DNA from: Dehalococcoidia bacterium
Lineage (GTDB): Bacteria; Chloroflexota; Dehalococcoidia; Lucifugimonadales; UBA3495
NCBI GenBank assembly: GCA_963668585.1
Contig: OY764869.1
Span: 1,867,106-1,931,105, forward strand
DNA: 64,000 bases
Direction of reading: 5' to 3'
How positions within the stretch are numbered: position 1 is the first letter of the stretch; every line of letters begins with the position of its first letter. Positions 13,106 through 59,635 of the stretch are shown here, piece after piece. The position numbers were made by a program, and so were the translations under genes. The notes under the pieces were generated by a model. That model saw only the letters and a list, made by a program, of their open reading frames with translations. It made no database searches and had not been told where the DNA came from.

Positions 13106-14965
13106 TCAGTTCAAGCGGGTGATACGGTTCTGGGGGCCGGGGGCGACCGCTTCGGCATTGGCGAAGTAGGCGGTCAGAGCATCCAGGTCAAGCGCGCCGC
13201 CGAGCCTGTCCGTACCATCGGCCAGTACGCTGTAGCGATCGCCGCCATCGGCCATGAAACTGTTGACGGTCACGCGGTAGCCGGCGTCAGGATCCACGAC
13301 CTGGCCTTCGATGGTGATACTCACCGGATCCACCTTTGAGCCGGTTGGTTGGGCGGCGTCCCAGGTGTAGCTGAACCCCGTGGAAACCTGGACGATCCTG
13401 CTGTAGCCCGGTTCCGGATTGTCGAACTGGCTCTCGAGCAGGATGTGGATCTGGGCGCCGGTCAGCGACATGGTGACCAGACTGTTGCCGAAGGGATGGA
13501 CGGCGAAGCCTTCGCCGAAGGTGAATTCACCATCAGTCTCGCTGCCGGTAGCGGCGAATACTATGTCATCGCGGATGCCGCCGGAATTCATGAACGCGAC
13601 CACGGCGTTGCCCGTATCGGCGTCCCGGGTCGCCGCAAGCTGAGCGTCCGCAATGACGTCGCCCAGCGCCGACTCGCCGGCCGCGTTCGTGTCCCTGCTG
13701 ATGTCTGCGGTGGTCACGCCGATGACTGCGTTTGCCAACGGCCCCGACAGCACGGCGTACCTGTCGATGAGCGCGGTCAGCGCGGGATCGGGGGTGACGC
13801 CAGCCTGGGAGTTTGGGACGTTGTTGATCGCTGTGACCGTCAGGTCTTTGGTGGTCTGGTCCAGCGCCACGTCAATGACGGTGAACAGGCGGCCGCCGTT
13901 GTCGGCCATGGTCACCCACTTGCCGTCGATCTCGCAGGTGAACTGATCGTTGGTATGACCAGCAATCACCAGGTCCACCGCGTCGTCGAGTTGGGCGGTG
14001 ATGTCCGCAATCGGGCCGGTGAGTCCCGATCCACAATCGTTTTGCCCGCCGTCGGAGAACCCGCCTTCGTGAAGCAGGACGGCGATGGCTTCGATACCCT
14101 CTTCACGCAGGCGTAGCGCCAGGGAGTTGACTGTTTCGGCCTCGTCCTGAAACGTCAGGCCCTCCACCCCGCTGCGGGCGACAATGCTGGGCGTCCCTTC
14201 CAGGGTCAATCCGATGAACGCCACCTTCACGCCCTGGTAATCCTGGATGGCATAGGGCGGGAAGATCGTTTTCCCGGTCGCGTCATCGATGACGTTGGCG
14301 GCGAGGAACTGGAAGTCGGCGCCCGCAAAGGGATCACCGTCGAGGTCGCCGTCGACCGGGTGCGGCCCGCCGTTCTGCATTCGCAGCAGTTCTGCCATTC
14401 CCTCATCGAACTCATGGTTGCCCACGCCGTTGAAGTCCAGGCCCATCAGGTTCATGGCTTCAATGGTGGGTTCGTCGTGGAAAAGCGCCGAGATCAGTGG
14501 TGACGCCCTGATGAGGTCCCCGGCCGACACGAACACGGAGTTCTTCGCTCCATCAGCGGCGGCGGCGAGATTGGCTGCCAGGTAGTCCGCGCGGCCAACC
14601 CCGCCAAAAGAGCCGGACGAAGTCGCTATGTTGCCGTGGAAATCATTGATCGCCAGGATCCGGAGCCGCACCTCCTGGGCCTCGCCCACAGGCTGGTCGC
14701 TGGATTGAGGAAGCGAGGGGACGATTCGGGTCACCGGTAATTCCCTGGTTATTTCAACCTGGCGTGTGACCTCAATCTCGACCATTCCCTCCCTGCTTCT
14801 CTCGACCAACCGCGTCACCGGCACTTCTCGGGTCACTTCAACCTCTGTGGGCGATGGTGGACTGGTGCAACCGATGATGGACAGCGCTGCCAGGGCACAG
14901 ATCATTGCGATCAAAGGTCTCAACTTCCCGTCCTCCCACGTCCGGCGAGACAGATAACTTCGCAA
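13106..14965 (-). CDS. Bifunctional metallophosphatase/5'-nucleotidase (UshA-like) lipoprotein
   Basis: Lipobox LSIIGC, and metallophosphoesterase motifs INDFHGN and GNHEFD. 619 aa. Confidence 0.9.
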   Translation of the reverse strand: MRSYLSRRTWEDGKLRPLIAMICALAALSIIGCTSPPSPTEVEVTREVPVTRLVERSREGMVEIEVTRQVEITRELPVTRIVPSLPQSSDQPVGEAQEVRLRILAINDFHGNIATSSGSFGGVGRADYLAANLAAAADGAKNSVFVSAGDLIRASPLISALFHDEPTIEAMNLMGLDFNGVGNHEFDEGMAELLRMQNGGPHPVDGDLDGDPFAGADFQFLAANVIDDATGKTIFPPYAIQDYQGVKVAFIGLTLEGTPSIVARSGVEGLTFQDEAETVNSLALRLREEGIEAIAVLLHEGGFSDGGQNDCGSGLTGPIADITAQLDDAVDLVIAGHTNDQFTCEIDGKWVTMADNGGRLFTVIDVALDQTTKDLTVTAINNVPNSQAGVTPDPALTALIDRYAVLSGPLANAVIGVTTADISRDTNAAGESALGDVIADAQLAATRDADTGNAVVAFMNSGGIRDDIVFAATGSETDGEFTFGEGFAVHPFGNSLVTMSLTGAQIHILLESQFDNPEPGYSRIVQVSTGFSYTWDAAQPTGSKVDPVSITIEGQVVDPDAGYRVTVNSFMADGGDRYSVLADGTDRLGGALDLDALTAYFANAEAVAPGPQNRITRLN

Positions 14966-15390: not shown

Positions 15391-15420
15391 CCATGCGGAG
15401 ATGTCATCATCTCCGCATGG
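15391..15420. terminator. Perfect 13-bp hairpin downstream of the NMT1-like gene
   Basis: CCATGCGGAGATG / loop TCAT / CATCTCCGCATGG, 17 nt beyond the stop at 15437. No U-tract. Confidence 0.5.
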
Positions 15421-15436: not shown

Positions 15437-16357
15437 CTAATCGTCTGCTGCCGCCGGTTCCGCGAGGCGGTTGTCGATCAGGTCCACGCTGCACGCCGCG
15501 CCGTCGAGCAACCCCCAGCGTACCATCCAGTGGTAGGTGTCCTCAACGATCTCGTCGGTGTAAGGCGTGTTGTACGAGTATCGGATACGGGACAGGTGAA
15601 AGTCCTCGGGGGTGATCCCGCCGTATTGGGCAGCCACCGCCGCGAATCGTGGCTCGTCGATGAGGTAGTGGAGATACTTCCGTTTGTCGGCGTTGATCCG
15701 GTTCACGGCGCTGACGATCGCCCGGTTGATGGCGGCGAACGTTTCCTCATCCATGTTGTCGCTGGCGTTCTCGGCGCCCAGGTAATGGCCCTCGCACACC
15801 GGGCGGCAGCCCAGCTTTTCGGCCAGGGTAATCCAGGGTTCCATGAGGGCGGCGGCTTCCACATCGCCTTTCATCATGGCCTCAAAACGGAACTGGGGAG
15901 AGCCGTGATGAACCAACTTGATCTTTTCCTCGGGCAGATAGCCCGACAAAAGCCGCAGCGCGACGTAGTGAGAACCGGCATGGAACTGGACGGCCACGGG
16001 TTTGTTCCCCAGCGTGCCGGGGTAGTAATGCGGAGAGTCTGGGCGAACCAGGATGGCCTGGCTGGCTACGGCGGATCGGAGGGCGATGATGCGGGCGCCC
16101 TGTTTGCTTTCATAGGCCCGACGGACCTGCCCTTCTTCTCAAGCCCGGTAGATTGCTACCTGGGCCTCCTCAAAAGCCACGTGGCCCAGGATGGGGTTCA
16201 CGTCGTCGGGGTTTTCGGTTGGGTTGACCCTGCCGCTGTTGAGCGCAGTGACGAATTCCATGTCAATGCCTTCGGCTTCAAACAATCCCTCGTCCTTGGC
16301 CACCAGCCACGGCAGGCTAAAAACCACGCCGCTGATCTCGCTGACTACTTTCTTCAT
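15437..16357 (-). CDS. NMT1/THI5-like (NitT/TauT-type) binding-fold protein interrupted by one in-frame TGA (16141-16139): candidate selenoprotein or recent pseudogene
   Basis: Track ORFs 16139..16459 and 15437..15997 share a frame, and the 141 nt between them have no stop. GAGGAG RBS before ATG 16357. The read-through length of 306 aa is normal for this fold. There is no signal peptide. Confidence 0.6.
16114..16128 (-). promoter_or_regulatory. SECIS-like hairpin candidate downstream of UGA 16141-16139
   Basis: mRNA AGGUCC-GUC-GGGCCU (6 bp including one G.U, apical GUC), starting 10 nt after the UGA. Confidence 0.3.
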
Positions 16358-16711
16358 CTCAGCTGTCTCCTCAAGTTTTGGCATCTGTGCCGCGCAGTTT
16401 AGCAAAGCCCCCGTGTGCCGTCCATGCCGGCATTTCGGTGGGTCGGCCGCAGGGCGCACGGTATTGCCGTGAGACAGTCGCTCAACTCCGAACAGTCGCC
16501 ATCGCTGGGGGAATTAGCACCCATCTGCAAGGTTGTAGTAAAGTACGCACGGGTTGGTCGTTCTTCGCATCTTCAGATTGGCCGCGATACGCGGGCCGGT
16601 ACCCCAGCGCACCGATGCCGGGAAACGATTCCCCGAATGCACATACTTCGCCAGCAGGGCGTTGATGGTTCATCGATGTCAGACAATCTGAACCTGGACA
16701 AGGAATCCGAC

Positions 16712-17554
16712 ATGAACACAAACAACAAACCGGTCGCCGTGGTAATCGGGGCGACATCCAAATGGCAGTCCGATGGTCGCAACACGCACCTTGTCCACGG
16801 CGGGGAGATCGATGACAGCGACCTTCCCGTGGGCGTGCGTTGGGGCGTCGGCGGAGCGATCGCCCAAAAATTCGCGCAGGAAGGCTTCTACACGGTGTTG
16901 ACCACCCGGAGTGCAGCCAACGCGACTCCGCTGGACGCCGCCATCAAAGAGCAGGGCGGGGACAGCATGATCGTGGAGTTGGACCTCTCCATCGCTGAGT
17001 CCATAGCGGCCGCGTTCGCCCAGATCCGGGAAGAAGCCGGAGACCCGGACGTGCTGGTTTATAACGCGGGCTACCTGGAGGGACGCGACCTTCCTCCGGA
17101 GATGGAGTTGCTCGAGCACATGCCGTTCGAGATGTTTGAAACCGCGCAGCACATATCCAGCAGCGGCCCCTTCCTGGTCGCCAAGGAAGTCCTGCCGGCC
17201 ATGCGGGAGCGGGGCGAGGGTTCGATCCTGTTCTCCAACAACGCGGCGGGTCTGCGTGGCCGAAAGCGATACACCGGTCAGTCTCTGTATTACCCCAGGG
17301 TCATGATGCGGACGCTGGCGCAAGCGTTGACGGAGGAGTATTCCGAGCACGGTGTCCATGTGGCCAATGTGGTGATCGACGGCACCATCGACTCTCCCGG
17401 CACCCGAGCGATGCCGCGCGCCCAGCAAAATCCGGAGTTGTTGATCAATCCCGTCAAGATCGCAGAGGCGTTTTATTACCTGCACACGCAGGACAAGTCC
17501 TGCTGGACGCATGAACTCCAGTTGACCCCGTATCCCGTCAGGCCCAGCTTCTGA
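16712..17554 (+). CDS. SDR family oxidoreductase
   Basis: VAVVIGATSKWQ glycine-rich N-terminus and a short-chain dehydrogenase layout. AAGGAA RBS before ATG 16712. An alternative in-frame ATG lies at 16676; the track start at 16415 is unlikely. Confidence 0.8.
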   Translation: MNTNNKPVAVVIGATSKWQSDGRNTHLVHGGEIDDSDLPVGVRWGVGGAIAQKFAQEGFYTVLTTRSAANATPLDAAIKEQGGDSMIVELDLSIAESIAAAFAQIREEAGDPDVLVYNAGYLEGRDLPPEMELLEHMPFEMFETAQHISSSGPFLVAKEVLPAMRERGEGSILFSNNAAGLRGRKRYTGQSLYYPRVMMRTLAQALTEEYSEHGVHVANVVIDGTIDSPGTRAMPRAQQNPELLINPVKIAEAFYYLHTQDKSCWTHELQLTPYPVRPSF

Positions 17555-17607: not shown

Positions 17608-18672
17608 ATGGATGTTGGAATGATGATGATCTTCTCCAGTTACGGCTGGGAAGAGGGCTCCGACGGCCAGATGTGGCAGGAGGAGTTGCGACTCGCGGAA
17701 ATCGCTGCCGATTCGGGATTTGATTGCCTCTGGTCGGCTGAGCACCATTTCAACGATTATTCCTTCGTGCCCGACAATCTCCAGTTGATGACGCACGTTG
17801 CGGCGAAGCATCCCGACATCGACGTGGGCACCGCTGCGGTCATCCTGCCCTGGCATAACCCGTTGCGGGTTGCCGAGAACGCCGCCGTGCTCGATTTGTT
17901 GAGCAACGGCCGGCTCCGCTTGGGGTTCGGGCGAGGCCTGGCGCGGCGGGAATTTGCAACCTTCGGGATCAGCATGGATGAGTCCCGGGAACGGTTCGAT
18001 GAGGCGGCGCCCATGATAGTCAACGCCCTGAATACCGGTTTCATCGAGGGCGACGGCACGCATTACAAGCAGGCCCGCACCGAGATACGGCCCCGGCCGC
18101 AGCATTCATTCGACGGGAGAATCTACGCGGTGGCTGCCAGCGATGATTCCGTTCTGTCTGCCGCGAAGCTTGGCGCGCACATCATCATGTTCGCCGACCG
18201 GCCGTGGGAGATGCGTATGCCGGGTATCGAACGCGGCAGGGCCCTGCACCGGGAGTTTCATGGCACCGAACCCCCGAACCTGATGTTGACCGAGTTCGTG
18301 ATTTGCGGCACCGACCTCGCGCAGTGCGAAGAGGAAGCCCGGCAGTACCAGGGGAAGTTTGTCGAGAGCAATTTTTATCACTATGAATTCCTGGGCGACC
18401 ACTTCGGGACGGTGAAGGGTTACGACGCCTATCAGCAGAAGGCCGAAATCGCCCGATCCACCGGCCTCGAAGGGGCGGTTGAAGGGTTCATGAAGGCGGC
18501 CAGTTGGGGCACGCCCGACAAGATCCTCAGGGGGTTGGAGGACCGGCGGGCGTTGCTCGGAGATTTTGAGTTGAACGTCGCCTTCCGTTTCGGAGGCACG
18601 CCGCCCGAGGTGGCCGAACGGGGCATCAAGCTCTTCGCCGAAGAGGTGTTGCCGGTACTGAAATCCTGGTAG
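17608..18672 (+). CDS. LLM class (luciferase-like) flavin-dependent oxidoreductase
   Basis: FDCLWSAEHHF and SNGRLRLGFGRG blocks. 354 aa. Confidence 0.9.
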   Translation: MDVGMMMIFSSYGWEEGSDGQMWQEELRLAEIAADSGFDCLWSAEHHFNDYSFVPDNLQLMTHVAAKHPDIDVGTAAVILPWHNPLRVAENAAVLDLLSNGRLRLGFGRGLARREFATFGISMDESRERFDEAAPMIVNALNTGFIEGDGTHYKQARTEIRPRPQHSFDGRIYAVAASDDSVLSAAKLGAHIIMFADRPWEMRMPGIERGRALHREFHGTEPPNLMLTEFVICGTDLAQCEEEARQYQGKFVESNFYHYEFLGDHFGTVKGYDAYQQKAEIARSTGLEGAVEGFMKAASWGTPDKILRGLEDRRALLGDFELNVAFRFGGTPPEVAERGIKLFAEEVLPVLKSW

Positions 18673-18749: not shown

Positions 18750-18781
18750 CCGGGCCGCCGATGGGTGGCCCGGCGTTTTTT
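18750..18781 (+). terminator. Rho-independent terminator
   Basis: Stem CCGGGCCGC (18750-18758) / GTGGCCCGG (18765-18773) with one G.U pair, then TTTTTT at 18776-18781. Confidence 0.8.
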
Positions 18782-20561
18782 ACGCATTCGCCCAGGGGTT
18801 GCTACGGGCCATCTCCCTCACGCCCCTGGACGACGTGATGGGGGCCAGGCACCGGTCTCCCAAGCACGCGTAGAGGGCAGCCTCATGGCGCAGCGGGAAC
18901 CCCAACTCCTGGATCCGGCCGGCGTCGCGCTCCACATCCAACGGCTGGACGACGCGGTGAGGGGCATGGACTCCCAGGGCCGCGCGGTGCAGGCGACGAT
19001 AGTCAGCCCTGTTAGAATCGCCGACCAGCGTGAGACTCACCAGCCCGTTGGTCAGCGCGTCGCTGGCGCGACCCCACGCAGCGCCCGCCGGCAAGAACAG
19101 CGCTTCCTCGTCCTCTTCCATCGTTCTGGAGGCGTGAGCGCCCAGGTAGCTTTTCCCGGGAACCGCCGCCTCGAAGACTCGCAACGTGGCGGCGGCCCAT
19201 GCCGAGTATGTTTCGTCGCCGGTCAAATCGGCCAGAGCCAGGAGCGCTTCCGCCCAGCAACTGTTGTCCAAGACCGCAAGTTCACGGGTCAGGAACGCCG
19301 CCTCGAATGATCTGGGCGCGGTGGTGTCGTAGCAACCACCGTCGGGCGCGCCGAACGATTGCTGGACGGCTTGGGCCAACGCGACGGCGCGTTGCAGGAA
19401 GACGGGCTGACCGGTTGATTGATAGAGCGCCAGCCATGCCCGCAGGAAGTTCACCTGGTCAGCGAGCGTGAGCGTGGCGTCGCCGGACCCATCGGCGCGG
19501 TGACGCAATTCCCCGGCAGGGGTGGAACAATCCTGCCACAATCGAGACAGGATGCCGTTGGCCTTCCGCAGCAAATCCGGTCGGTTCAGCGAGTTGGACG
19601 CCTGGATCAACGCGTGGGCAGCCAGGGCATTCCACCCGGCATAGAAGGTGTGATCAACGGGCGGCGGCGAGGCAGCGTCCCGATCTTTCCACGGCATCTG
19701 ATAGTACGGTTCATCGGCGTCCTGACTGGCGAAAAACATCCCGGCGTCGGCACTGAACAGCGTTGACATAAGGTATTGCAAGGTGCCGTCAGCGGCCGAT
19801 TTGTAGGGTGTCTTGCGGGTGATCCGGAACGCTTCCAGGTAGGCCATGGCCAGGTTGGCGTTGCTGACCAGCATCTTTTCGTAGTGTGGCACCTTCCAGT
19901 CGCGGCTGACCGAATATCGGAAGAAACCGTGGTCCTTGCGGTCGTAGATCCCATGCCACATTCCCTGCAGGGTGGTCTCGACCATTTGCAGGATCGCGCG
20001 GTCTCCGGTGAAAGCGTAGCGGGAGCAGAGGAATTGCAGCGCCTCCCACGGGGGTTGCTTGGGTTCGAGTCCAAAACCGCCGAATTCCTCGTCGTAGAGA
20101 CCCGCCAGGCTATGGAACACCGCATCGACGGTCGCGCCGTCCTCCGGTTGGGTTTTCGGTGCGGTGGTGTCCGAACGTGCGGGGCGGGCCGGCGGGACGA
20201 ATTCCCCGCTGGACACCTGCGCCAGCAACGTCGCCATCTCGTCCGGGGGTGTGTAGGGCCGTCCGGCGAGAAATTCACCGTCGGCGGTCAGGAATGCGAC
20301 CGAAGGGAAACCACCCTGGTTGTATCGCAGCGATATGTCCGGCCGTTGGTCAACGTCCACGCGCACCGGGATGAATCGCGAGTTGACCAGTTCAATTACG
20401 CGTTCGTCCGAGTAGGACGTTTCGTCCATGACGTGGCACCAATGGCACCAGGTAGCGCCGAGGGTGAGCAACACCGGCTTGTCCTGAGACCGGGCGGCTT
20501 CGAAACTCTCCTCGCTCCATTCTCGCCAGGCAATGGGGCCGGCATTATTGGGTAGGGTCAT
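18780..20561 (-). CDS. Thioredoxin-domain protein of the DUF255/YyaL type (thioredoxin fold + six-hairpin glycosidase-like domain)
   Basis: N-terminal KPVLLTLGATWCHWCHVMD motif. The 593-aa length and alpha-rich C-terminal domain are typical of this family. Confidence 0.85.
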   Translation of the reverse strand: MTLPNNAGPIAWREWSEESFEAARSQDKPVLLTLGATWCHWCHVMDETSYSDERVIELVNSRFIPVRVDVDQRPDISLRYNQGGFPSVAFLTADGEFLAGRPYTPPDEMATLLAQVSSGEFVPPARPARSDTTAPKTQPEDGATVDAVFHSLAGLYDEEFGGFGLEPKQPPWEALQFLCSRYAFTGDRAILQMVETTLQGMWHGIYDRKDHGFFRYSVSRDWKVPHYEKMLVSNANLAMAYLEAFRITRKTPYKSAADGTLQYLMSTLFSADAGMFFASQDADEPYYQMPWKDRDAASPPPVDHTFYAGWNALAAHALIQASNSLNRPDLLRKANGILSRLWQDCSTPAGELRHRADGSGDATLTLADQVNFLRAWLALYQSTGQPVFLQRAVALAQAVQQSFGAPDGGCYDTTAPRSFEAAFLTRELAVLDNSCWAEALLALADLTGDETYSAWAAATLRVFEAAVPGKSYLGAHASRTMEEDEEALFLPAGAAWGRASDALTNGLVSLTLVGDSNRADYRRLHRAALGVHAPHRVVQPLDVERDAGRIQELGFPLRHEAALYACLGDRCLAPITSSRGVREMARSNPWANA

Positions 20562-41459: not shown

Positions 41460-44255
41460 TTAGAAATCGCCCCATGAGTAACCGGACTTGACCTCCACCT
41501 TCAGGGTCACGTCCAGGTCCAACGCTGCCGGCATTTCGTCCATCGCCAGCGCGGTCATGTCGTTCATCTCGTCGTCCGGCACTTCAAACACCAACTCGTC
41601 GTGTACCTGCAGGATCATACTGGAGCGCATTTGATCGCGCTGAATGCGTGCCTGCACGTTTATCATCGCCTTCTTCATAATATCCGCGGCGGTGCCCTGA
41701 ATCGGCATATTGATCGCCATGCGCTCGGCGGCGGCGCGGGTGTTGTGATTGGTGGACTGGATATCCGGGAAGTACCGCCGGCGGCCCAGCAGGGTCTCAG
41801 CGTACATGGTGGCCCGGGTCTGCTCTTTGACCGATTCCAGGTAGTCCTTGATGCCAGGGTAGCGGGCGAGATAGGTGTCGATGAAATTCCGGCCCTCTTC
41901 GCGGCTGAAACCAGTCTGTTGAGATATGCCGTATGGCCCCAGGCCGTAGATCACCCCGAAGTTCAACACCTTGGCGATGCGCCGCTGTTCGGAGTCCACT
42001 TCGTTGATCGGCACGTTGAACATCTGGCTGGCGGTCGCGGCATGGATGTCCTCGCCGCGTCGGAAGGCTTCCAGCAGCGAAGGGTCCTGGGACAGGTGGG
42101 CGAGAACGCGCAGTTCGATCTGGGAATAATCGGCGGAGAGCAACCGGCAGCCCGAGTCGGCAACAAAAGCGCGACGCACCTGGCGCCCCAACTCGGTGCG
42201 CACCGGGATGTTCTGGAGGTTGGGATCGCTGCTGCTGACCCGCCCGGTTGCCGAACCGGTCTGGTGGTAGGACGTGTGGATGCGCCCGGTGCGGTCATTG
42301 ATCATTTCAGGCAGCGCGTCCACGTAGGTTGACTTCAGCTTGGATACCTGACGGTAGTCCAGGATCCTGTCCACCACCGGGTGCATCCCCTTCAACGATT
42401 CCAGGGCGTTGGCGTCCGTGGAGTAGCCCGACTTGGTGCGGCGCGTTTTGGGCAGGCCCAACTCCCCAAAGAGCAGGTCGCTCAACTGCTTGGGCGAGTT
42501 GATGTTGACGGTGTGGCCGATGTCGGCGTACAGATCGGCTTCAATGTGGTCCAGTTGTTCCCTGAGATCTCGGGACATCTCGTGCAGGATGCCAGCGTCC
42601 AGTTTTACTCCCGAGCGCTGCATTTCCACCAGCACCGGGACGAGGGGCAATTCAACATCGGACATCAGGCCCGACAGACCCTGAATCTCCAGCAGCGGGT
42701 CAAACTGACGGCGCAATTGCAGCGTGCAGTCGGCGTCCGCGGCGGCGTAGGGAGCGCCGGCGACAATGTCAACCTCGTTGAAGGTGATTTGCCGAGCGCC
42801 CTTGCCGATGAGATCGGTGATTTCGGTCATTTCCCGACCCAGTATCGACAGCGCCAGAGGCTTCAGTCCAAGGCGGTTGTTGCCCAAAAGGTGGGCGGCG
42901 ATCATGGTGTCGTGGTCGATCACGTCGTTGGGGTCGATGCCGTAGTTGCTGAGCAGCGTGAGGTCGTAGTTGGCGTTGTGGGCTGAACGCCGGATTCCCG
43001 GGGTGGTAAACAGCGGACGCACGGCGGCCAGCGCTTCTTCCAGCGAAAGTTGCTCGCCGGTGGTGTGTCCCACCGGCACATACCAGGCAGTCCCTTCCGG
43101 CACCGCAAAACTCAGTCCCGCCAACTCGGCTGCCATGGGGTCCGTGCTGCTGGACTCGGTGTCGAAGGCAAAGGCCCCTGCGGCGCGGATGGTGGTTATC
43201 ATGTCCTCCAGGGCCGCGGAGGTGGAAACGATCCGATAGTCGGTTTCGGCTGGCGCATCATCGACGCGTGGGACCAGGTTCGGCGGGGCCGCCGGATCGG
43301 ATGGCAGCGAGGTCCAGGGAGCATCGGGAGACGGCACTCGCCCGACGATGCTGTGGAATTCCAGCGCCGTCATCAGGGCCACCACGTCGCCGCGCTCGTA
43401 ATCGCCAAATCGGCTGGCGTCGAGGTCCAGCGTGGTGGGCACGTTACGGTCGATGGTGGTGAGTACGCGGTACTCGAAAGCGGCGTCCTGGTTCGCCTCC
43501 AGGCTGTTCTTGACGCGCTTCTGAGTGATTTCGTCCAGATGCTCGTAGATGCCTTCCAGGGTGCCGTAATTGGAAAGCAGGGTGGTGGCGGTTTTGTCTC
43601 CCACGCCCGGGACGCCTGGTATGTTGTCCGACTTGTCCCCAACCAGCGCCTTATAGTCCGGTTGCTGAGCGGCAGTCAGACCGCCGTATCGCTCGGCCAG
43701 TTCTTCCTCGCCCACGATCCGGCGGTCGCGTTCGCTGCTGGCAAGGTCAACGCGGACCGATGGCGAGATCAACTGGAAGGTATCCCGGTCGCCGGTAAGT
43801 ATCACCGTCTCGACGTCGGCGGCTTCGGCCTGCCGGCTGAGGGTTCCGATGATGTCGTCCGCTTCGAATCCCGGCAGTTCATACACCGGAACTGAGAAGG
43901 TTGACATCATTTCCTTCACCCGGTCGAATTGACCGCGCAGTTCGGGCGGCGTCGGTGGACGCTGCGCCTTGTATTCAGGGAACCGTTCGTGGCGGAAGGT
44001 GGGCGCCGGGTTGTCGAAGGTGACGACAACGTGAGTTGGCTGCCATTCGTTGAGGGCACGAAGGAATACGCTGGCGAAACCGTAAACGCCGGTGACGTCT
44101 TCGCCCGTGGTGGACACGGTGAGGTTGCGGCTGACGCTGATGGCTCGGAAAGACCGGTGAATCATGGCGTGACCGTCAATCAGCAGCAGCAACGGCGACT
44201 TGCGGCCGGATGCGCCAAAAGACATCTGCATTGACATTTGGCCGCTGCTCGCCAT
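41460..44255 (-). CDS. polA: DNA polymerase I
   Basis: 931 aa with a 5'-3' exonuclease N-terminus (LLLIDGHAMIHRSF), a 3'-5' exonuclease domain and family-A polymerase motifs (DYSQIELRVLAH, QVHDELVFE). Confidence 0.97.
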   Translation of the reverse strand: MASSGQMSMQMSFGASGRKSPLLLLIDGHAMIHRSFRAISVSRNLTVSTTGEDVTGVYGFASVFLRALNEWQPTHVVVTFDNPAPTFRHERFPEYKAQRPPTPPELRGQFDRVKEMMSTFSVPVYELPGFEADDIIGTLSRQAEAADVETVILTGDRDTFQLISPSVRVDLASSERDRRIVGEEELAERYGGLTAAQQPDYKALVGDKSDNIPGVPGVGDKTATTLLSNYGTLEGIYEHLDEITQKRVKNSLEANQDAAFEYRVLTTIDRNVPTTLDLDASRFGDYERGDVVALMTALEFHSIVGRVPSPDAPWTSLPSDPAAPPNLVPRVDDAPAETDYRIVSTSAALEDMITTIRAAGAFAFDTESSSTDPMAAELAGLSFAVPEGTAWYVPVGHTTGEQLSLEEALAAVRPLFTTPGIRRSAHNANYDLTLLSNYGIDPNDVIDHDTMIAAHLLGNNRLGLKPLALSILGREMTEITDLIGKGARQITFNEVDIVAGAPYAAADADCTLQLRRQFDPLLEIQGLSGLMSDVELPLVPVLVEMQRSGVKLDAGILHEMSRDLREQLDHIEADLYADIGHTVNINSPKQLSDLLFGELGLPKTRRTKSGYSTDANALESLKGMHPVVDRILDYRQVSKLKSTYVDALPEMINDRTGRIHTSYHQTGSATGRVSSSDPNLQNIPVRTELGRQVRRAFVADSGCRLLSADYSQIELRVLAHLSQDPSLLEAFRRGEDIHAATASQMFNVPINEVDSEQRRIAKVLNFGVIYGLGPYGISQQTGFSREEGRNFIDTYLARYPGIKDYLESVKEQTRATMYAETLLGRRRYFPDIQSTNHNTRAAAERMAINMPIQGTAADIMKKAMINVQARIQRDQMRSSMILQVHDELVFEVPDDEMNDMTALAMDEMPAALDLDVTLKVEVKSGYSWGDF

Positions 44256-44474
44256 GGGTTCCCTCCAACTTCGCGCTGGACACGTGCGGGCCAGCGGCGC
44301 GTTTGGGCGGCATTATACATTAGGCGCATCCGAAACCGCCGCACACCTCGCGTCACTCCATGTGGCATATTTATCAACGGGCGGGTGTTTGCCAGAGCGC
44401 GAAATGGGGACGCCAAGCCGCAAGGCGCCACGGCAGCGATTTGCGCCATGGGCTGTGCTAAAATGCGTCTCACC

Positions 44475-44792
44475 ATGCCGATGTACGAATACCGATGCAA
44501 CCAATGCGCCCAGCGCCAGTCCCGCCTGGTGTACAGTTGGTCGCCCGCCGATGGATTGGCGTGCAACAACTGCGCGAGCAATGACCTGGACCGGTTGGTC
44601 TCAGGGTTTTCATTCCACCGTTCCTGGGGGGACAGCCTGAACTGGATGCCGGATAACGCCGCCGCCGACCTGGACAACAGCCATGTGGGCAGCATAGATT
44701 CGCACATGGGGCGCATGGGCGACGCCATGGGCGGCCTGGTAACGCCGGACTTCCACGAGCATCGGCACGAGATCAATCACCCCGACAACTGA
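44475..44792 (+). CDS. FmdB-family zinc-ribbon protein
   Basis: MPMYEYRCNQC...CNNC (CxxC...CxxC ribbon). 105 aa. Trimmed from the track start at 44238. Confidence 0.8.
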   Translation: MPMYEYRCNQCAQRQSRLVYSWSPADGLACNNCASNDLDRLVSGFSFHRSWGDSLNWMPDNAAADLDNSHVGSIDSHMGRMGDAMGGLVTPDFHEHRHEINHPDN

Positions 44793-44797
44793 AACTC

Positions 44798-45133
44798 ATG
44801 CCAATCTACGAATATCGTTGCCAGGAATGCCGGGCCGTGGTGTCTGTCTTCGTCCGCTCCATAAGCAGCCACGTCAAACCCGGGTGCGAATCCTGCGGCG
44901 GAAGCCAGATGGAACGCCGGATGTCAACATTCGCCATGGGCAAGACCGTGGCGGGCGTTCATGAAGCCAACCCCATGGGAGCCAGCAGCCGCGACTACTA
45001 CAGCGACCCGCGCAACATTGGTCGCAACGTCGAGGAATCCTTCTCGCGGCATGGGGTGGACATGCCGGATTCGGTGCGGCAGTCGATCGATTCCGCCAGG
45101 AGCGGCGAGACTCCCAAAGGACTTGACCTGTGA
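44798..45133 (+). CDS. FmdB-family zinc-ribbon protein (tandem paralog)
   Basis: MPIYEYRCQEC...CESC. 111 aa. Starts 5 nt after the preceding stop. Confidence 0.8.
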   Translation: MPIYEYRCQECRAVVSVFVRSISSHVKPGCESCGGSQMERRMSTFAMGKTVAGVHEANPMGASSRDYYSDPRNIGRNVEESFSRHGVDMPDSVRQSIDSARSGETPKGLDL

Positions 45134-48681: not shown

Positions 48682-49245
48682 ATGACTATTGGCAATGCCG
48701 CAACCGTTCAATTGATTGATCCGACCGGGTTTGATCCGGGAGAATCCCCGCTGGTCATGGCGGCGCGCCCGGTTGACCTTCGGGGCGGCCGACTGGGGCT
48801 GCTGGACAATTCCAAGGCCAACTCGGATGCCATTCTGTGGGCCATTGCGCGCGCGCTGGACGAGGAGTTCGAGTTTTCGAATATCCATTACGTCCAGAAA
48901 CACAGCGCTTCGTTGCCGCCGCACCCGGAAGTCATGGCTGACCTGCATCGGAACTCGGACTTTGTGATCGCCGGCGTGGGTGATTGAGGGGGCTGCTCGT
49001 CGGGCAGTTTGCACGACGGAATAACCCTGGAGCGGCAGGGCATCCCCGCAGCCACGATTATCACGACGGTGTTCGCGAACACCGCCCGGGCGTACACGCG
49101 CCTCATGGGTGTTCCCAACTTCCCGTATCTGATGTGCCCACACCCCATCACCAACGTGGATGGTGCAGCGCTACAGGCGCGCGCGCAGGAACTGATTCCG
49201 GGCGTGCGCAGTTTGCTCATCAACGGCGCCCTGACCTCCAATTAG
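48682..49245 (+). CDS. UGSC-family (seleno)protein candidate with in-frame TGA (Sec) at 48985-48987
   Basis: Track ORFs 48682..48987 and 49009..49245 share a frame with no further stop between them. Read through, the sequence is ...VIAGVGD-U-GGCSSGSLHDGITLERQGIP... (UxxC). GAGGAG RBS before ATG 48682. 187 aa. Confidence 0.72.
48998..49018 (+). promoter_or_regulatory. SECIS-like hairpin candidate downstream of UGA 48985-48987
   Basis: CGUCG-G-GCA / GUU / UGC-A-CGACG (5 bp, 1x1 mismatch, 3 bp), starting 10 nt after the UGA. An alternative fold is CUGC (48993-48996) / GCAG (49004-49007). Confidence 0.4.
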
Positions 49246-51173: not shown

Positions 51174-52154
51174 TCAGTACAGGTGGCAGGAGACGCGGTG
51201 GCCAGGCGATACCTCTTTTTCCACCGGCGCTTCCTCCGAACATTGCGGCATGGCAAACGGACAGCGTGGATGGAACCGGCATCCGGTGGGCGGATTGATG
51301 GGGGATGGCACCTCGCCCTGCAGCACGATGTCTTCGCGAATCAAGTCCGGGTGCGACGGCAGCGCGGCGGAGAACAACGCTCGGGTATAGGGATGCAGGG
51401 CGTTGCTGTAGAGTTCCTCGGTCTCGGCGTACTCGACGATTTGGCCAAGGTACATTACCGCAGTCTCGTGGGCCATGTAGCGGACGGTGGCCAAGTTGTG
51501 CGCGATCAGCAGGTAACTGACGTTGTACTGCTCCTGCAGGTCTTTCAGAAGGTTCATGACCTGGGCGCGGATGGACACGTCCAGCGCCGACACCGGCTCG
51601 TCCAGGACAATCAGCTTGGGGTAAGAAACCAGCGCGGACGCCACCGCGATGCGCTGTCGTTGCCCTCCGCTGAACTCATGCGGGTAGTTGGTCGCCTGCT
51701 GGGAGTGCAATCCGACCTGTGCCAGAACTTCGGAGACACGCTCATTCTTTTCCTGTGTGGTCACGTTTCGGTTGACCACCAAGGGCTCTGAAACTATGTC
51801 CCGAACCCTCATGCGGGGACTCAACGACGACCACGGATCCTGGAAGACTGCCTGCACCGTCGTCCGGTATTCCTGCAACTGGGTTCCGCGGAACGAGTTG
51901 ATGTCTTCGCCTTCGAGGAGGATTTCACCCTCGGTGGGGCGTTCGAGCCGCAACAAAAGTTTGCTGGTGGTGGTTTTTCCGCAACCCGATTCGCCCACCA
52001 GGCCAACGGTCTCGCCCTGTTTGATGGAGAACGAAATGCCGTCCACCGCCTGCACGTAACCGATGGTCTTCATCATTATGAGACCCTTGGTTACGGGGAA
52101 ATATTTCTTCAGGTTGCGAACTTCCAGAAGATTGTCGTTAGTTGCCACTGCCAT
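51174..52154 (-). CDS. ABC transporter ATP-binding protein, oligopeptide/dipeptide type (OppF/DppF-like)
   Basis: Walker [10 protein letters not shown], signature FSGGQRQR, Walker B LIVLDEP and a C-terminal oligopeptide-type domain (CRFHPRCP). Confidence 0.93.
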   Translation of the reverse strand: MAVATNDNLLEVRNLKKYFPVTKGLIMMKTIGYVQAVDGISFSIKQGETVGLVGESGCGKTTTSKLLLRLERPTEGEILLEGEDINSFRGTQLQEYRTTVQAVFQDPWSSLSPRMRVRDIVSEPLVVNRNVTTQEKNERVSEVLAQVGLHSQQATNYPHEFSGGQRQRIAVASALVSYPKLIVLDEPVSALDVSIRAQVMNLLKDLQEQYNVSYLLIAHNLATVRYMAHETAVMYLGQIVEYAETEELYSNALHPYTRALFSAALPSHPDLIREDIVLQGEVPSPINPPTGCRFHPRCPFAMPQCSEEAPVEKEVSPGHRVSCHLY

Positions 52155-52205
52155 GGGGAGCGGTCCTCCTCAATTTGAAATGGGGGAGTGCGATGATGTA
52201 CGGAG

Positions 52206-53249
52206 TTAGCCGGCAGACCCGGTGGGAGGGATGAATTCCTCTATCTGGGTACCCTGCCAATCGGGGTCCAGGGCCCAGCAATCGGCATGATGAGCTTCCG
52301 CCAACTGGTACGACGGCGGGTAGCCTTCATAGCACTGGTCGGCCGCGTAGGGACACCGGGGCGCGAAGCGACAACCCTCGGGGAGGTTGGAAAGGAGCGG
52401 CGGTTGTCCGTCAATGGAGTATAGGCGGTCCACCCGCTCTTCCAACTTGGGAACTGAATTGATCAGGGCTTGTGTGTAGGGATGCGCCGGACGGCTGAAT
52501 ATGTCGCGAACGTCTCCCTGTTCAATGATTCGCCCCGCATACATCACCGCCACCCGGTCGCACATCCTCGCCACCACGCCGAAGTCGTGAGTGATGAAGA
52601 TGATCGCCAGACCGGTTTCCGCCTGAATTTCCTTGAGGAGGCGGAGATACTGCAACTGGATGGTGACGTCAAGGGCGGTTGTGGGCTCGTCAGCAATGAT
52701 GATGCCGGGCTCGCAGGACATTGCGATGGCGCCGACCACGCGTTGTTTCATGCCGCCGGACATCTGGTGCGGATAGTCGTCGAGCCGTCGTTCCGGGGCC
52801 GCGACGTTCACCTTGCGCAAGGCGTCAACTGCCCTGGAGATCATCGAGCTTTTGTTTTCTCTGTGCGCGATCCCCAGGGCTTCCCGAAGCTGGTTGCCTA
52901 TGGTGAAGACCGGGTTCAGCGATGTCTGCGGGTCCTGCAGGATCATTGAGATCTGGCGGCCACGAACGTCTCGCATCTCATCCTCGCTTTTTTGGAGGAT
53001 GTCTTCGCCGTTCAACACGATCTGGCCTTCAACGATACGCCCCGCGGGCTTGGGGACCAACCTCAGAAGAGACAGGGCCGTCATGGTCTTTCCGCAGCCG
53101 GACTCTCCAACGATGCCCAGAGTCTCGCCTTTGCGCAGGTTGAACGAGATGCCGTCCACCGCTTTGACGATGGCAGCGCGAGTGAAAATATAGGTTTTGA
53201 GGTCGCTGACTTCCAGAATGGTGTCAGTGGCAGTTTGTACAGCTGTCAT
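52206..53249 (-). CDS. ABC transporter ATP-binding protein, oligopeptide/dipeptide type (OppD/DppD-like)
   Basis: [29 protein letters not shown] and CRFAPRCP. Confidence 0.93.
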
Positions 53250-53252
53250 GAG

Positions 53253-54338
53253 TTAAACGTTCCTCAATTTGGGGTCCAGTTTGTCCCTTAGCCAGTCTCC
53301 CAGGAGGTTCATAGAGAGTACCGTAAGGACGATTGCCAGGCAAGGGAAAAGGAAAATCCACCAAGCGGTCGTGATCAGGTCTCTCCCATCAGCAACCATA
53401 ACCCCCCAAGCCGGCGTGGGCGCCGGGATACCTGCGCCCAGGAAGCTCAGGGTGGACTCCAGGATTATGACGTGGCCCACCTCCAAAGTGGCTAATACTA
53501 CCACTGTATTGACCAGATTGGGGAAAATGTGCCTCATCATTATGCGGGCGTTGGAAGCGCCGGAAACTCGCGCTCTGTCGATGAAGTCCTGCTGCTTGAT
53601 GGCGAGCGCTTCTCCTCTCACGACACGCGCGTAGCGCGCCCACAACAGCACCGCGATCACCACGATCACCGTGGTGAAACCGGCTCCGATGGCGGCTACC
53701 AGCACCAATGCCAGGAGTATGGAAGGGAAGGCCAGTTTGATATCGACAACGCGCATGATTACGGCGTCGGTTTTGCCGCCACGGTAGGCCGCGAGCATCC
53801 CCAGCACGGTGCCCAATCCGCCACCCAGAAGGATAGCGAGCGAGGATACAAGCAGTGAAATCCGGGCGCCGTGCATGATGCGGCTCAGGATGTCCCTACC
53901 CTGTTTGTCGGTGCCCAGTGGGTACTCCATGGAGCCGCCCTTTTGGGACAGGAACCGGAGGGTATCGCCCGGATTGACCTCGCCATCTTCGCCACCGGTA
54001 ATGATGGTCGCCTCGCCGCGTTCAACTTTGCGCTGGGCGTTGGACAGGCCAATTTCGACGTCGAGACGATTGCGATCGGCCCGTTGCACCACCATCCGTT
54101 GTTCGAAACTTTCCGATATCCAGAAAGGTGGAAGTTTGGCGTCGTCAAGCACTCCAATCCGTTGGCTGTGGGGCGCGAGCTGGTTTGCGAAAATCGCCGG
54201 AACCGCCAGGAGCGCAATGAGGACCAACAGCGGTATCACCGGCAGGCTGCGGGCTACCCGCAGGCCCGCGATCACCCGATTCTCGGGCTGAGGAGTTGCG
54301 GGAGCCGATGCCTCCGGAGTTGTAGTGACTGCTGCCAT
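53253..54338 (-). CDS. ABC transporter permease (OppC/DppC-like), module 1
   Basis: YPLGTDKQGRDILSR motif and BPD-transport domain, with an extended N-terminal extracytoplasmic segment. Confidence 0.92.
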   Translation of the reverse strand: MAAVTTTPEASAPATPQPENRVIAGLRVARSLPVIPLLVLIALLAVPAIFANQLAPHSQRIGVLDDAKLPPFWISESFEQRMVVQRADRNRLDVEIGLSNAQRKVERGEATIITGGEDGEVNPGDTLRFLSQKGGSMEYPLGTDKQGRDILSRIMHGARISLLVSSLAILLGGGLGTVLGMLAAYRGGKTDAVIMRVVDIKLAFPSILLALVLVAAIGAGFTTVIVVIAVLLWARYARVVRGEALAIKQQDFIDRARVSGASNARIMMRHIFPNLVNTVVVLATLEVGHVIILESTLSFLGAGIPAPTPAWGVMVADGRDLITTAWWIFLFPCLAIVLTVLSMNLLGDWLRDKLDPKLRNV

Positions 54339-54392
54339 AATGCACCTCGTTCTTTCAATCGTATCCGGATACGATTAGCGTCCCAACCCTGA

Positions 54393-55313
54393 CTATGAGT
54401 ATCTGATCCGCGGATCAATGTAGGCGTACAGCACATCCACCATGATGTTGATCAGTACAAACGCGGTGGCGAACAGCAACACCACGGCCTGCACCACCAC
54501 GTAGTCTCGGAACAGGATGGCATCAATCACCAGCGCTCCCAGGCCAGGCCAGGCAAACACTGTTTCGATGACCACCGAACCGGTGATCAGGACTGCGCCG
54601 ATCAGGCCGAAATAAGTCAGTGGCACGATCAACGCATTCCGGAAGCAGTGCTTCCAGATGACCTTCCATTCAGCGACGCCCTTGATCCGGGCCAGCTTGA
54701 CATACTCGGTGTCCAAAACTTCCAGCATGGAAGATCTGGTCAGGCGCATCAGAGCGGCCACATTGTAGTAACCCAATGCCACCGCCGGCAGGATCATGTA
54801 TTCAAACCCGCCGCTGCCCGACGTTGGGAAAAGGTCAAGTTGGACTGCAAAAATCCACATCAGGATCAGCCCCACCGCAAACGTGGGGGCCGACTGGCCA
54901 AGGATGGCGAACAGCTTCCCTCCGTAGTCGAAGGGTGTGTCTTTCTTTATCGCGACGAGCACGCCGATGGGAAAAGCGATCACTCCGCTGACGATAAGGG
55001 CTAGGGCTGACAGTTTGACGGTGTTGGGCAATCGTTCGACGATCAACTCGCCGGCGGAGGCGTTTGGCCACGCCAACGCTTCACCGAGATCGCCACGGAA
55101 CAACTTCCCCAAGTATAGGATGTATTGCATGTGCAGGGGCTTGTCCAGCCCCCACTCTTTCTTGGTCAACTCTATCTGTTCTTCCGACGCTTCCTCCGGC
55201 AGCAACACGTTGAGGGGATCCCCAGAAACGCGAGCCAACGCGAAGGTCACCGTGCTGATTATGAAAATTGCCAGGATGCCCTGGGCAACTCTTCGCAAAA
55301 TGTAGCGTTGCAT
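54393..55313 (-). CDS. ABC transporter permease (OppB/DppB-like), module 1
   Basis: MQRYILRRVAQGILAIF start, the EYVKLARIKG (EAA-loop) motif and C-terminal DPRIRY. Confidence 0.92.
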   Translation of the reverse strand: MQRYILRRVAQGILAIFIISTVTFALARVSGDPLNVLLPEEASEEQIELTKKEWGLDKPLHMQYILYLGKLFRGDLGEALAWPNASAGELIVERLPNTVKLSALALIVSGVIAFPIGVLVAIKKDTPFDYGGKLFAILGQSAPTFAVGLILMWIFAVQLDLFPTSGSGGFEYMILPAVALGYYNVAALMRLTRSSMLEVLDTEYVKLARIKGVAEWKVIWKHCFRNALIVPLTYFGLIGAVLITGSVVIETVFAWPGLGALVIDAILFRDYVVVQAVVLLFATAFVLINIMVDVLYAYIDPRIRYS

Positions 55314-55348
55314 GGCTGCTGTTCCCCCCGTCCAGTTGAAGTCCGGCG

Positions 55349-55385
55349 CCTCCGGCGTCACACCATTTCAGAGCGACGCCGGAGG
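55349..55385 (-). promoter_or_regulatory. Intra-operon hairpin between the binding-protein and permease genes (module 1)
   Basis: 11-bp stem CCTCCGGCGTC (55349-55359) / GACGCCGGAGG (55375-55385), located between the SBP stop (55428) and the permease start (55313). Confidence 0.55.
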
Positions 55386-55427
55386 AAAGGTTGCTGCTGA
55401 CCGTTGTGATTGGGTATCCCGTCAGAG

Positions 55428-57407: not shown

Positions 57408-57496
57408 GGAACCCTCCTTTTGGTTCTATATGGGTTGGCTCGAAGCTGTTTGCGTGGGTTGCCCTCCGGTTTGACGATGTGAATTGCTGCTTCCCG

Positions 57497-58585
57497 TTAG
57501 ACGTTGCGCAGCCTGGGGTCGAGGCGGTCGCGCAGCCAGTCGCCCAGCAGGTTCATGGACAGAACGGTCAAAACGATGGCCAAGCACGGGAACAGGAAAA
57601 TCCACCATGAACTGGTGATGACCTCCCGTCCGTCGGCGGCCATCAGTCCCCAGGCGGGTTGCGGCCGCGGAATACCGGCGCCCAGGAAACTCAACGTCGC
57701 CTCAAGGATGATGACGTGTCCTACTTCCAGGGTCGCCAGGACGATGACTGTATTGAACACGTTGGGGAATATGTGCCGGGCCATGATCCTGGTGTTGGAC
57801 GCCCCGGCCACCCTGGCGCGATCGATGAAGTCGCGTTCCTTGATCGACAGGGCTTCGCCGCGGACCACGCGAGCGTAGCGCGCCCACAGCAGCAGAGCGA
57901 TCACGATGACGACAGTGCTGAATCCCGACCCGATGGCCACGACCAGCGTCAGGGCCAAAAGGATCGAGGGGAAAGCCAGTTTGATGTCCACGATGCGCAT
58001 GAGCACCGCGTCAACCAGACCTCCTCTGAATGCCGCCAGCATCCCCAGCGCTGTTCCAAGGAAGCCGCCGAGCAGGATGGCAAGACACGAAACAGCCAGG
58101 GATATCCGCGCTCCGTGCATCAGTCGGCTGAGAACGTCGCGGCCCTGCTTGTCGGTGCCGAGGGGGTATTCCCAGTTGCCACCGGGCTCGACGCGCACCA
58201 TAGTTTCGCCGATGTCGGGCTGGCCGTTGCCGTTTGCGTCTATCAAGTTACCAGCGCCGCTGTCGAAGTTCCGGCGGGCATTGTTGATGCTTACTTCGGC
58301 GTTTTGGTCCCGGGCGCGTTGGACGATTTGTCGTTCCGTTGCGCGGTCAGGAACCCATCCGGGCGGTTCGAGGACCCGTTGGAGATCTCCGATGGTGTGG
58401 TCGTGCTGAGCCAACACGTCGGCAAAAGCGGCCGGCACGATCAGGAATATTATCAGCACCAGCAGGGGTATGACCGGGAACCGTCGGATTTCACGCCAGA
58501 CGTTGGAGGTTGTAAACCCTCCTTGTGCCGCCGTCGGGGCGGATTGATCTGCCTGTCCGCCAGGAGCGGTGGTTTGCACAGCCAT
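57497..58585 (-). CDS. ABC transporter permease (OppC/DppC-like), module 2
   Basis: Paralog of 53253-54338 (YPLGTDKQGRDVLSRLMHGARISL). Confidence 0.92.
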   Translation of the reverse strand: MAVQTTAPGGQADQSAPTAAQGGFTTSNVWREIRRFPVIPLLVLIIFLIVPAAFADVLAQHDHTIGDLQRVLEPPGWVPDRATERQIVQRARDQNAEVSINNARRNFDSGAGNLIDANGNGQPDIGETMVRVEPGGNWEYPLGTDKQGRDVLSRLMHGARISLAVSCLAILLGGFLGTALGMLAAFRGGLVDAVLMRIVDIKLAFPSILLALTLVVAIGSGFSTVVIVIALLLWARYARVVRGEALSIKERDFIDRARVAGASNTRIMARHIFPNVFNTVIVLATLEVGHVIILEATLSFLGAGIPRPQPAWGLMAADGREVITSSWWIFLFPCLAIVLTVLSMNLLGDWLRDRLDPRLRNV

Positions 58586-58608
58586 GAATCATTTCCCTCC
58601 GGCAATTC

Positions 58609-59526: not shown

Positions 59527-59571
59527 GATACCCGTTCCTAAAAAGCGTGCGTTCCCTCAGGTTGTCAGCAT

Positions 59572-59608: not shown

Positions 59609-59635
59609 TGGAATGTGCTAGGTATGAACCGTCTG

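Follow-up and report, generated by a model that had tools for sequence, protein, structure and literature searches.

Prokaryotic selenoproteins were inventoried in May 2026 as 119 families and subfamilies, of which only two resemble substrate-binding proteins, SaoB (motif CUxxT, where U is selenocysteine, Sec) and SaoX (UxP) (PMC13188914). Both are secreted proteins or lipoproteins, found only in anaerobes as parts of a nine-gene organometallic system and encoded beside a permease and an ATPase (Haft & Gwadz). Here we analyse a gene whose reading frame is interrupted by a single TGA in a 64-kb window (64,000 nucleotides of contig OY764869.1 from a Dehalococcoidia bacterium), and conclude with high confidence that it is an intact selenoprotein gene in which this TGA is the Sec codon. 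A preliminary description of the window had hesitated between a new selenoprotein and a very fresh pseudogene; the first part of this alternative is supported by the presence of the TGA in all 88 orthologous loci, a Cys at the same position in paralogues and a conserved hairpin, whereas the second is contradicted by an even ratio of nonsynonymous to synonymous polymorphism (pN/pS) along the gene and by the absence of any extra stop. It had also mentioned recent reports of Sec-containing ABC-type (ATP-binding cassette) binding proteins. This is true of SaoB and SaoX (Haft & Gwadz), but the family studied here is not one of them. It figures neither in the inventory (PMC13188914 Table 1, which also takes in the families of Haft & Tolstoy 2025) nor in NCBIfam, the GOS (Global Ocean Sampling) study, deep-Sep and BSepDB make no mention of such a family, and we found no description of this SAR202/Dehalococcoidia family in the searchable full-text literature. 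Thus, the selenoprotein family appears uncatalogued, while the UGA/SECIS (selenocysteine insertion sequence) decoding itself is a standard bacterial mechanism.

The two-lobed fold of binding proteins is not confined to transport. Thiaminase I depends on a catalytic Cys, and the HMP-P synthase Thi5 has a pyridoxal phosphate-binding Lys62, a substrate His66 and a CCCFC iron motif. These two proteins, together with DszB and MqnA, are cytoplasmic enzymes built on the same fold (PMC9672406, which cites a C143S mutant of thiaminase I). In the desulfinase DszB, the catalytic Cys27 acts with His60 and Arg70 (PMC6100217, PMC9672406).

The TGA codon and the aligned cysteine

The reading frame proved to be as first described. 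On the minus strand, the open reading frames (ORFs) 16139..16459 and 15437..15997 share the same frame and have as sole interruption the TGA at 16141-16139 (...QVAIYRA-[TGA]-EEGQVRRAYESKQGA...). The 141 nt past this codon stay open, with the translation EEGQVRRAYESKQGARIIALRSAVASQAILVRPDSPHYYPGTLGNKP, and reading from the ATG at 16357-16355, preceded by GAGGAG at 16372-16367, gives 306 residues. Also in agreement with the earlier observation, TGA is an ordinary stop elsewhere in the window: it closes about half of the long ORFs of the window (e.g., those ending at 8231, 12858 and 44792), so that the genetic code is standard, with no global reassignment.

We searched 5.8 billion proteins for homologues and then retrieved the DNA of the relatives that looked too short. 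Among the 78 top-ranked entries, two were full-length proteins with Cys in place of the TGA (hereafter Cys-type), and nearly all the others had ~204–219 residues, were 64–93% identical to the window protein and aligned with no more than the C-terminal two thirds of the query. Relatives of full length have ~300 residues and are ~50% identical to the window protein. At the DNA level, the TGA occupied the same codon in 88/88 orthologous loci, of which 8/8 came from contig look-ups and 80/80 from genomes representing species (228 matches were confirmed, of which the best 80 were used), and a 72-residue ORF in the same frame directly preceded it in every locus. The stop at this position was always TGA, never TAA or TAG. 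These orthologues (64–95% identity) belong mostly to metagenome-assembled genomes (MAGs) of Dehalococcoidia/SAR202/Chloroflexota, some of them from sponge and deep-sea samples. Their Met-Lys-Lys-Val start is kept, and the sequence 5' of it is not conserved. All but one of the loci (87/88) are intact; in the remaining one (L057, DAOUJY010000103.1) the N-terminal 72-codon segment has an apparent frameshift, probably a local indel error, and both the TGA and the 3' part are intact.

The column aligned with the TGA was Cys in all 44 aligned full-length paralogues, within the motif YRA-C-EWGQ(V/I)RR. In 72 Cys-type metagenome loci, the corresponding codon was TGC (60) or TGT (12), and TGA in none. 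The two comparisons proposed in the preliminary description thus showed that at least 80 species-level genomes share this TGA position and that, in paralogues, an invariant Cys forms with it a Sec/Cys pair.

This pattern extends to more distant relatives. An exhaustive profile search retrieved 147 cluster representatives at E <= 1e-30, several of them truncated in the same way and only 33–49% identical to the window protein. We compared the DNA of five of the six such divergent lineages tried (L169-L173) and found TGA at the same codon in L169, L170, L171 and L173, which are 36–48% identical to the window protein. L169 and L171 (40–48% protein identity) read FRA-TGA-EEGQVRRAF. L170, from groundwater (1337-2257), reads FQA-TGA-ECGQIHRA and L173 (580-1533) reads FQA-TGA-ECGNNRRV, both having a U-E-C motif with a Cys at +2. 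L172 (2195-3121), a Cys-type gene (YRACEWGQ) carrying a TAA at an unrelated codon, served as a negative control; its TAA is what pseudogene decay or an assembly error looks like.

The hairpin 3' of the UGA and the reading of the codon

According to the published consensus, bacterial SECIS elements (bSECIS) have a loop of 3–9 nt, a stem of 4–16 bp, 16–37 nt between UGA and loop, and a minimum free energy <= -7.5 kcal/mol, the first two positions of the loop containing a G, commonly as GG or GU (PMC13188914). The hairpin AGGUCC-GUC-GGGCCU noticed earlier at 16128-16114, beginning 10 nt past the UGA, agrees with all four ranges (GUC loop, 6-bp stem, 16 nt from UGA to loop, -7.6 kcal/mol). The SECIS-type structure that was to be looked for is therefore present, and it is conserved at the nucleotide level: the 16-nt block C-AGGUCC-GUC-GGGCCU (columns 13-28) is invariant in 66 distinct sequences, apart from two exceptions, a C->U substitution in the stem, where a G.U pair is retained, and a U->G substitution in the loop of three sequences. 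The natural GGC loop that results from the latter is also compatible with the bSECIS consensus. Synonymous variation is accordingly lowest at this place. Nowhere in the gene is synonymous-codon entropy lower than at codons +4 to +11 (0.50 vs a mean of 1.08), and synonymous polymorphism (pS) at the hairpin is 0.31 vs ~0.6 in the remaining gene. The Cys-type genes, which encode the same G-Q-(V/I)-R-R, provide a control: the codon entropy of Arg+6/Arg+7 is 0.28/0.00 in Sec-type vs 1.77/1.24 in Cys-type genes, and in that region a hairpin at least as stable as -5 kcal/mol forms in only 3/63 Cys-type genes.

The divergent lineages also carry hairpins. Those of L169 and L171 are identical to that of the window gene. 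L170 has CGGGCU-CGUGUU-AGCCCG, 24 nt from the UGA, and L173 has CCGC-CGUGUA-GCGG, 18 nt from it; their stems differ from each other and their loops are nearly identical (CGUGU[U/A]), stem and spacing being unlike those of the main clade.

The window contains another in-frame TGA, at 48985, which had been reported together with a hairpin. We confirmed both, the hairpin having a GUU triloop and lying 19 nt past the UGA. Since the product scores above the cutoff of NF041046, a catalogued selenoprotein family (UGSC) is encoded on the same contig. Its motif in this gene is UGGC instead of the UGSC that names the family. Marine Dehalococcoidia MAGs are among the selenoprotein-richest bacteria in BSepDB, with 46–49 genes (PMC13326102).

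Other explanations of the interrupted frame have to be weighed against these data. A lone in-frame stop in an intact gene resembles a fresh nonsense mutation in an NMT1-like gene whose decay has not yet advanced, and L172, with its TAA, represents real decay or assembly error within the family. However, the TGA studied here is shared by 88/88 orthologues at 64–95% identity as well as by lineages at 36–48%, always at the Cys column. In addition, the 84 distinct orthologous sequences that we compared for selection had no further in-frame stop and gave similar pN/pS values in three segments: 0.185 over the 72 N-terminal codons, 0.167 over codons +12 to +47, which in the window are reached by read-through alone, and 0.184 over the remainder, i.e., ~0.18 on either side. 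Multiple copies of one contaminating sequence cannot account for this, since pS reaches ~0.6 and the genomic contexts differ. A different possibility is a split gene, made of a 72-residue N-terminal peptide and a reinitiated C-terminal protein assembling non-covalently, as might be thought from the gene callers, which annotate a 72-aa ORF and one of ~205–219 aa in every genome. Nevertheless, neither a restart codon nor a ribosome-binding site is conserved past the UGA (the best start-capable codons, +30 and +31, occur in 38% and 67% of the sequences, respectively), and the database gene calls for the C-terminal part begin at differing, inconsistent positions. Moreover, the 47 codons ahead of any possible start in the window are under equal purifying selection (pN/pS 0.167), and a split would leave unexplained the invariable TGA at the Cys column and the frozen SECIS-type hairpin. 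Because purifying selection is even across the TGA and there is neither an extra stop nor a conserved start, a pseudogene is excluded for all practical purposes and a split gene is very unlikely. A further explanation is a sequencing or assembly error, the true codon being TGC, TGT, TGG or CGA, and the apparent frameshift of the L057 MAG in the same gene speaks in its favour; this explanation, whose probability we consider negligible, is ruled out because the same TGA recurs in independent assemblies from many projects (ENA, NCBI, JGI).

The residue inserted at a recoded UGA cannot be told from sequence alone, so the codon could also be recoded to something other than Sec, either Cys through a Sec-like system or Trp/Gly through near-cognate read-through or a suppressor tRNA. 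UGA-to-Cys recoding systems have indeed been proposed in some bacteria. Such recoding in Dehalococcoidia is not addressed by PMC5424206. Several observations make this alternative improbable: the hairpin geometry fits the SelB-dependent model, the window encodes a member of a catalogued selenoprotein family and the lineage is rich in selenoproteins, TGA terminates many ordinary genes of the window without any global reassignment, and the insertion of Cys offers no obvious reason for keeping a costly signal across many species. We therefore retain Sec as the residue encoded by the UGA. During translation, the UGA at 16141-16139 would be read as Sec, the hairpin at 16128-16114 acting as a bSECIS that, judging from its anatomy, would recruit SelB with Sec-tRNA(Sec). 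The gene would then encode a cytoplasmic protein of 306 residues that has the SsuA/TauA/ThiY/Thi5 fold and Sec73 in place of the invariant Cys of the paralogues.

Some results weigh against the reading of this UGA as a Sec codon. The hairpin is thermodynamically unexceptional (z = -0.86), and ~11% of random in-frame positions of the window, which is GC-rich, pass the generic bSECIS criteria; 0.3% fit a tighter geometry (>=6 bp, G[G/U] tri- or tetraloop, 16–20-nt spacing). Longer stretches, folded singly, gave alternative structures no better than shuffles, and therefore thermodynamics alone does not single out the SECIS. The near-complete invariance of the hairpin inside the main clade leaves no compensatory covariation there. 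Given the ~11% pass rate, the weight of the argument rests on the clade-specific freezing of synonymous sites. Finally, none of the genes selA, selB, selC and selD lies within the 64-kb window, which contains no tRNA genes at all.

Table 1 Coordinates of the features discussed, in positions of the 64-kb window.
Feature	Position	Strand	Basis
Complete gene, very probably of a selenoprotein; 306 codons and TAG stop (921 nt)	15437..16357	minus	Frame, homologues, orthologous loci
Shine-Dalgarno-like GAGGAG, 9 nt 5' of the ATG 16357-16355	16367..16372	minus	Read from sequence
UGA, predicted Sec73 codon, context IYRA-U-EEGQVRR	16139..16141	minus	TGA in orthologues, Cys in paralogues
Putative bSECIS core, C-AGGUCC-GUC-GGGCCU	16114..16129	minus	Nucleotide-invariant block, published criteria
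N-terminal 72 codons, a separate small ORF for gene finders; first beta-alpha units of lobe I	16142..16357	minus	
47 codons past the UGA, ahead of any possible restart codon; translatable by read-through only	15998..16138	minus	
Perfect 10-bp inverted repeat ATGCGGAGAT-gatgac-ATCTCCGCAT, 6-nt loop	15393..15418	minus	19 nt 3' of the stop codon
UGSC-family selenoprotein gene, TGA 48985-48987, GVGD-U-GGCSS	48682..49245	plus	NF041046, 131.5 bits (cutoff 125)

The inverted repeat at 15393-15418 is possibly a hairpin at the transcript end; it lacks a U tract, and a scan for consensus terminators did not pick it up. More generally, scanning for promoter and terminator consensus sequences around the gene gave nothing meaningful, and Rfam yielded zero matches at gathering thresholds in the whole window.

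Fold, neighbourhood and possible function

Domain models (Pfam PF09084 and PF13379, and TIGR01728) recognised the window protein only faintly, with scores of 20.6 for NMT1_2 (cutoff 24.7), 14.3 for NMT1 (20.5) and 26.2 bits for SsuA_fam (163.5); PF13379 and PF09084 matches are precomputed for many of the Cys-type paralogues. The NMT1 scores of the window protein, being under the gathering cutoff, weigh against our overall explanation. A profile search of Protein Data Bank (PDB) sequences likewise returned only weak SsuA/TauA matches, over the lobe II region. We therefore describe the fold on a structure model of a Cys-type paralogue (P0064, 53% identical to the window protein), which had a predicted local distance difference test (pLDDT) score of 93.5 and a predicted template modelling (pTM) score of 0.90. 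It shows a two-lobed type II periplasmic-binding-protein (Venus-flytrap) fold, and its best Foldseek matches in the PDB were SsuA, TauA, ThiY and Thi5 (E ~1e-13, template modelling scores 0.64–0.73, 13–17% identity). In this model, the Cys/Sec position falls between the strand 72-75 and the helix 79-86. Sec73 would thus lie in the loop that follows the third strand of lobe I and lines the ligand cleft, where it would cap the N-terminus of a helix. The other invariant residues are an FHAGSHY motif, an MEP(W) motif, and a Glu and a Tyr on the second hinge strand, all of which the model would place at the C-terminal ends of strands.

The preliminary description had seen neither a signal peptide nor an adjoining permease or ATPase gene, and both observations were borne out by the onset of the fold and by the neighbouring genes. 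The fold starts as early as residue 3, too close to the N-terminus for a signal peptide to precede it; none was seen on this basis, no dedicated predictor having been run. Secreted paralogues encoded near ABC genes have signals of ~28–40 residues, hydrophobic in L156 and of the twin-arginine translocation (Tat) type (RRAFLAG) in L172. Because it has no export signal and no adjoining permease or ATPase gene, the window protein is most likely no extracellular part of an ABC importer.

A second Cys characterises the Sec-type proteins. A hinge Cys before the invariant Glu (xCEGHY) occurs in 86 of the 89 typed U-E-[E/D] Sec-type sequences and in 0/~72 Cys-type ones. In the window protein, this clade-specific residue is Cys188 (about 15794-15796, minus strand), shared by L001-L088, L169 and L171. 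The two U-E-C lineages lack the hinge Cys but have the Cys at +2. Judging from these sequences, the second Cys may be compatible with a Se-S redox pair, or may reflect plain clade inheritance; in the former case it could form a selenenylsulfide with Sec73.

The gene stands alone on its strand, divergent from a short-chain dehydrogenase/reductase (SDR) gene (about 16676-17554) that is followed by a gene for a luciferase-like monooxygenase (LLM)-class oxidoreductase (17608-18672) and, beyond, by genes for a thioredoxin-domain protein and two amidohydrolases. The thioredoxin-domain protein, two genes away (18780-20561, minus; 593 residues), has a CHWCH motif and no TGA, and its N-terminus is weakly similar to the DsbD-like C-terminal part of the selenoprotein TsoB (E = 1e-13, far under the cutoff). 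On the 3' side, 13106-14965 (minus) encodes a lipoprotein-like 5'-nucleotidase, also devoid of in-frame TGA, with a sub-threshold match to the 'UshA-like (seleno)protein' family NF041198 (E = 8e-12).

Across the Sec-type loci, an LLM oxidoreductase is found within 3 kb in 37/89, a glucose-methanol-choline (GMC) oxidoreductase directly 3' in ~16, an acetolactate-synthase-like thiamine diphosphate (ThDP) enzyme nearby in 16, sulfopyruvate/phosphonopyruvate-decarboxylase-like alpha and beta subunits in 13–14, and a family III CoA-transferase in 14. A NitT/TauT-type permease occurs in none of these loci, and an ABC ATPase of the same cluster in only two loci. Beside 9 of the ~30 Cys-type loci with enough flanking sequence there is a NitT/TauT-type importer with its own secreted SsuA-family binding protein, which suggests that the cytoplasmic Cys-type paralogue handles the imported compound inside the cell. 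The L172 gene seems to share an operon with genes for an ATPase, a permease and an NMT1-type binding protein that carries a Tat signal, and two arylsulfotransferase genes lie next to it. A link of the family with arylsulfotransferases was rejected, as they occur at L169 and L172 and at no other locus.

As to the function, we tentatively consider the possibility, for which the odds are below even, that the protein is a cytoplasmic enzyme or covalent ligand handler whose cleft would bind a small, probably anionic (sulfonate-like) substrate, with the selenolate as nucleophile or redox centre. Doubtful, and more speculative still, is a wider proposal in which it would found a new class of selenoenzymes, as a cytoplasmic Venus-flytrap catalyst whose cleft selenolate, perhaps by way of a selenenylsulfide with the clade-specific Cys, would act on sulfonated or otherwise recalcitrant dissolved organic compounds; the family is conserved throughout the SAR202 radiation. 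Several findings speak against the first of these proposals. No partner gene is universal across the Sec-type loci, the recurrences being limited to subclades, and adjacency to LLM genes counts for little, since a SAR202 genome can contain more than 100 LLM paralogues (up to 114, and up to 4% of its genes; PMC6946804). The pattern of the second Cys goes back to no more than two or three independent events, and strand alternation may turn the hinge Cys away from the cleft.

Two further groups of genes in the window deserve mention. The ORF 44798-45133 (plus) and the C-terminal part of 44238-44792 (plus) encode tandem small CxxC zinc-ribbon proteins that, by eye, are FmdB-like (MPIYEYRCQEC..., MPMYEYRCNQC...); both are Cys forms, and FmdB is catalogued with Sec forms (UxxU). 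The region 51174-61705 (minus) contains, also by eye from the translations, two tandem paralogous sets of oligopeptide-type ABC importer genes, each with a binding protein and two permeases, and two ATPases for one set, which fit the dipeptide-transporter expansions reported for SAR202.

Annotation and comparison with described systems

In current databases, this gene is carried as two bogus ORFs in entries representing ~3,870 sequences and in at least 80 species-level genomes. The former figure was obtained by adding up cluster sizes over the 78 top-ranked entries minus P0064 and P0066; of the 76 so counted, three are something other than simple post-TGA truncations. The GenBank and IMG entries that we checked are named "hypothetical protein" or "NitT/TauT substrate-binding protein"; MCD5403076.1, MQF92546.1 and MQG34689.1 are Sec-type examples in GenBank, truncated and labelled "hypothetical protein". 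A family model with a selenoprotein flag would mend these annotations. The label "substrate-binding protein" should also be taken with caution, since it need not mean transport when the protein is cytoplasmic and has a reactive Cys or Sec.

SAR202, a dominant clade of the deep ocean, is considered an oxidiser of refractory organic matter. The presence of a conserved selenoprotein amid the catabolic islands of its genomes would provide a concrete, testable link between this metabolism and selenium, and would add to the known selenoproteins a family with a fold rare among them, in aerobic marine heterotrophs. If the doubtful proposal of a new selenoenzyme class were true, part of the carbon and sulfur turnover in the deep ocean and in sponge symbionts would depend, unnoticed, on the supply of selenium. 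The variety among the Sec-type lineages, which differ in hairpin (three kinds) and in motif (U-E-E or U-E-C), may also help to refine bSECIS models.

With selenoproteins of the E. coli fdhF type (PMC13188914), the window gene shares an in-frame UGA, a hairpin ~10–11 nt further on with a small G-U loop, a 16-nt distance from UGA to loop and the existence of Cys homologues. It differs from them in that the fold is not thioredoxin-like and the motif in this clade is A-U-E-E, without CxxU or UxxC. The resemblance to SaoB and SaoX lies in the binding-protein-type fold, in a Sec/Cys that, for the window protein, the model would place in the ligand cleft, and in database gene calls split at the TGA. 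Unlike those proteins, the window protein matches neither NF040727 nor NF040735, has the motif A-U-E-E, and lacks a signal peptide and an adjacent transporter; whereas SaoB and SaoX are limited to anaerobes, its family occurs in aerobic marine SAR202-type genomes, in an unrelated gene neighbourhood.

SsuA, TauA and ThiY (PDB 2x26, 3e4r, 3ksx, 6ssy, 3ix1) are the best structural matches, and the weak SsuA_fam and NMT1_2 profile matches and the NitT/TauT importers adjoining some Cys-type paralogues point to the same relatives. Nevertheless, the window protein differs from them in having no signal peptide and a low identity (~14–16%), and the adjoining importers own a secreted binding protein. 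The comparison with Thi5, which is among the top structural matches, has its limits: the window protein sequence contains no CCC motif, and aligning the family profile with hhalign to a Thi5 sequence gave an uninformative probability of 6%, revealing no sequence relationship, with a gap over the Cys loop that left the Sec without a position relative to Thi5 Lys62. DszB was not among the 50 structural matches listed, and its Cys is near the N-terminus, whereas the Cys/Sec of the present family comes after the third strand. Like DszB and Thi5, the window protein would be a cytoplasmic protein with a Venus-flytrap fold; the likeness to DszB, which also has one essential Cys in its cleft, consists in the fold class and in this single essential Cys.

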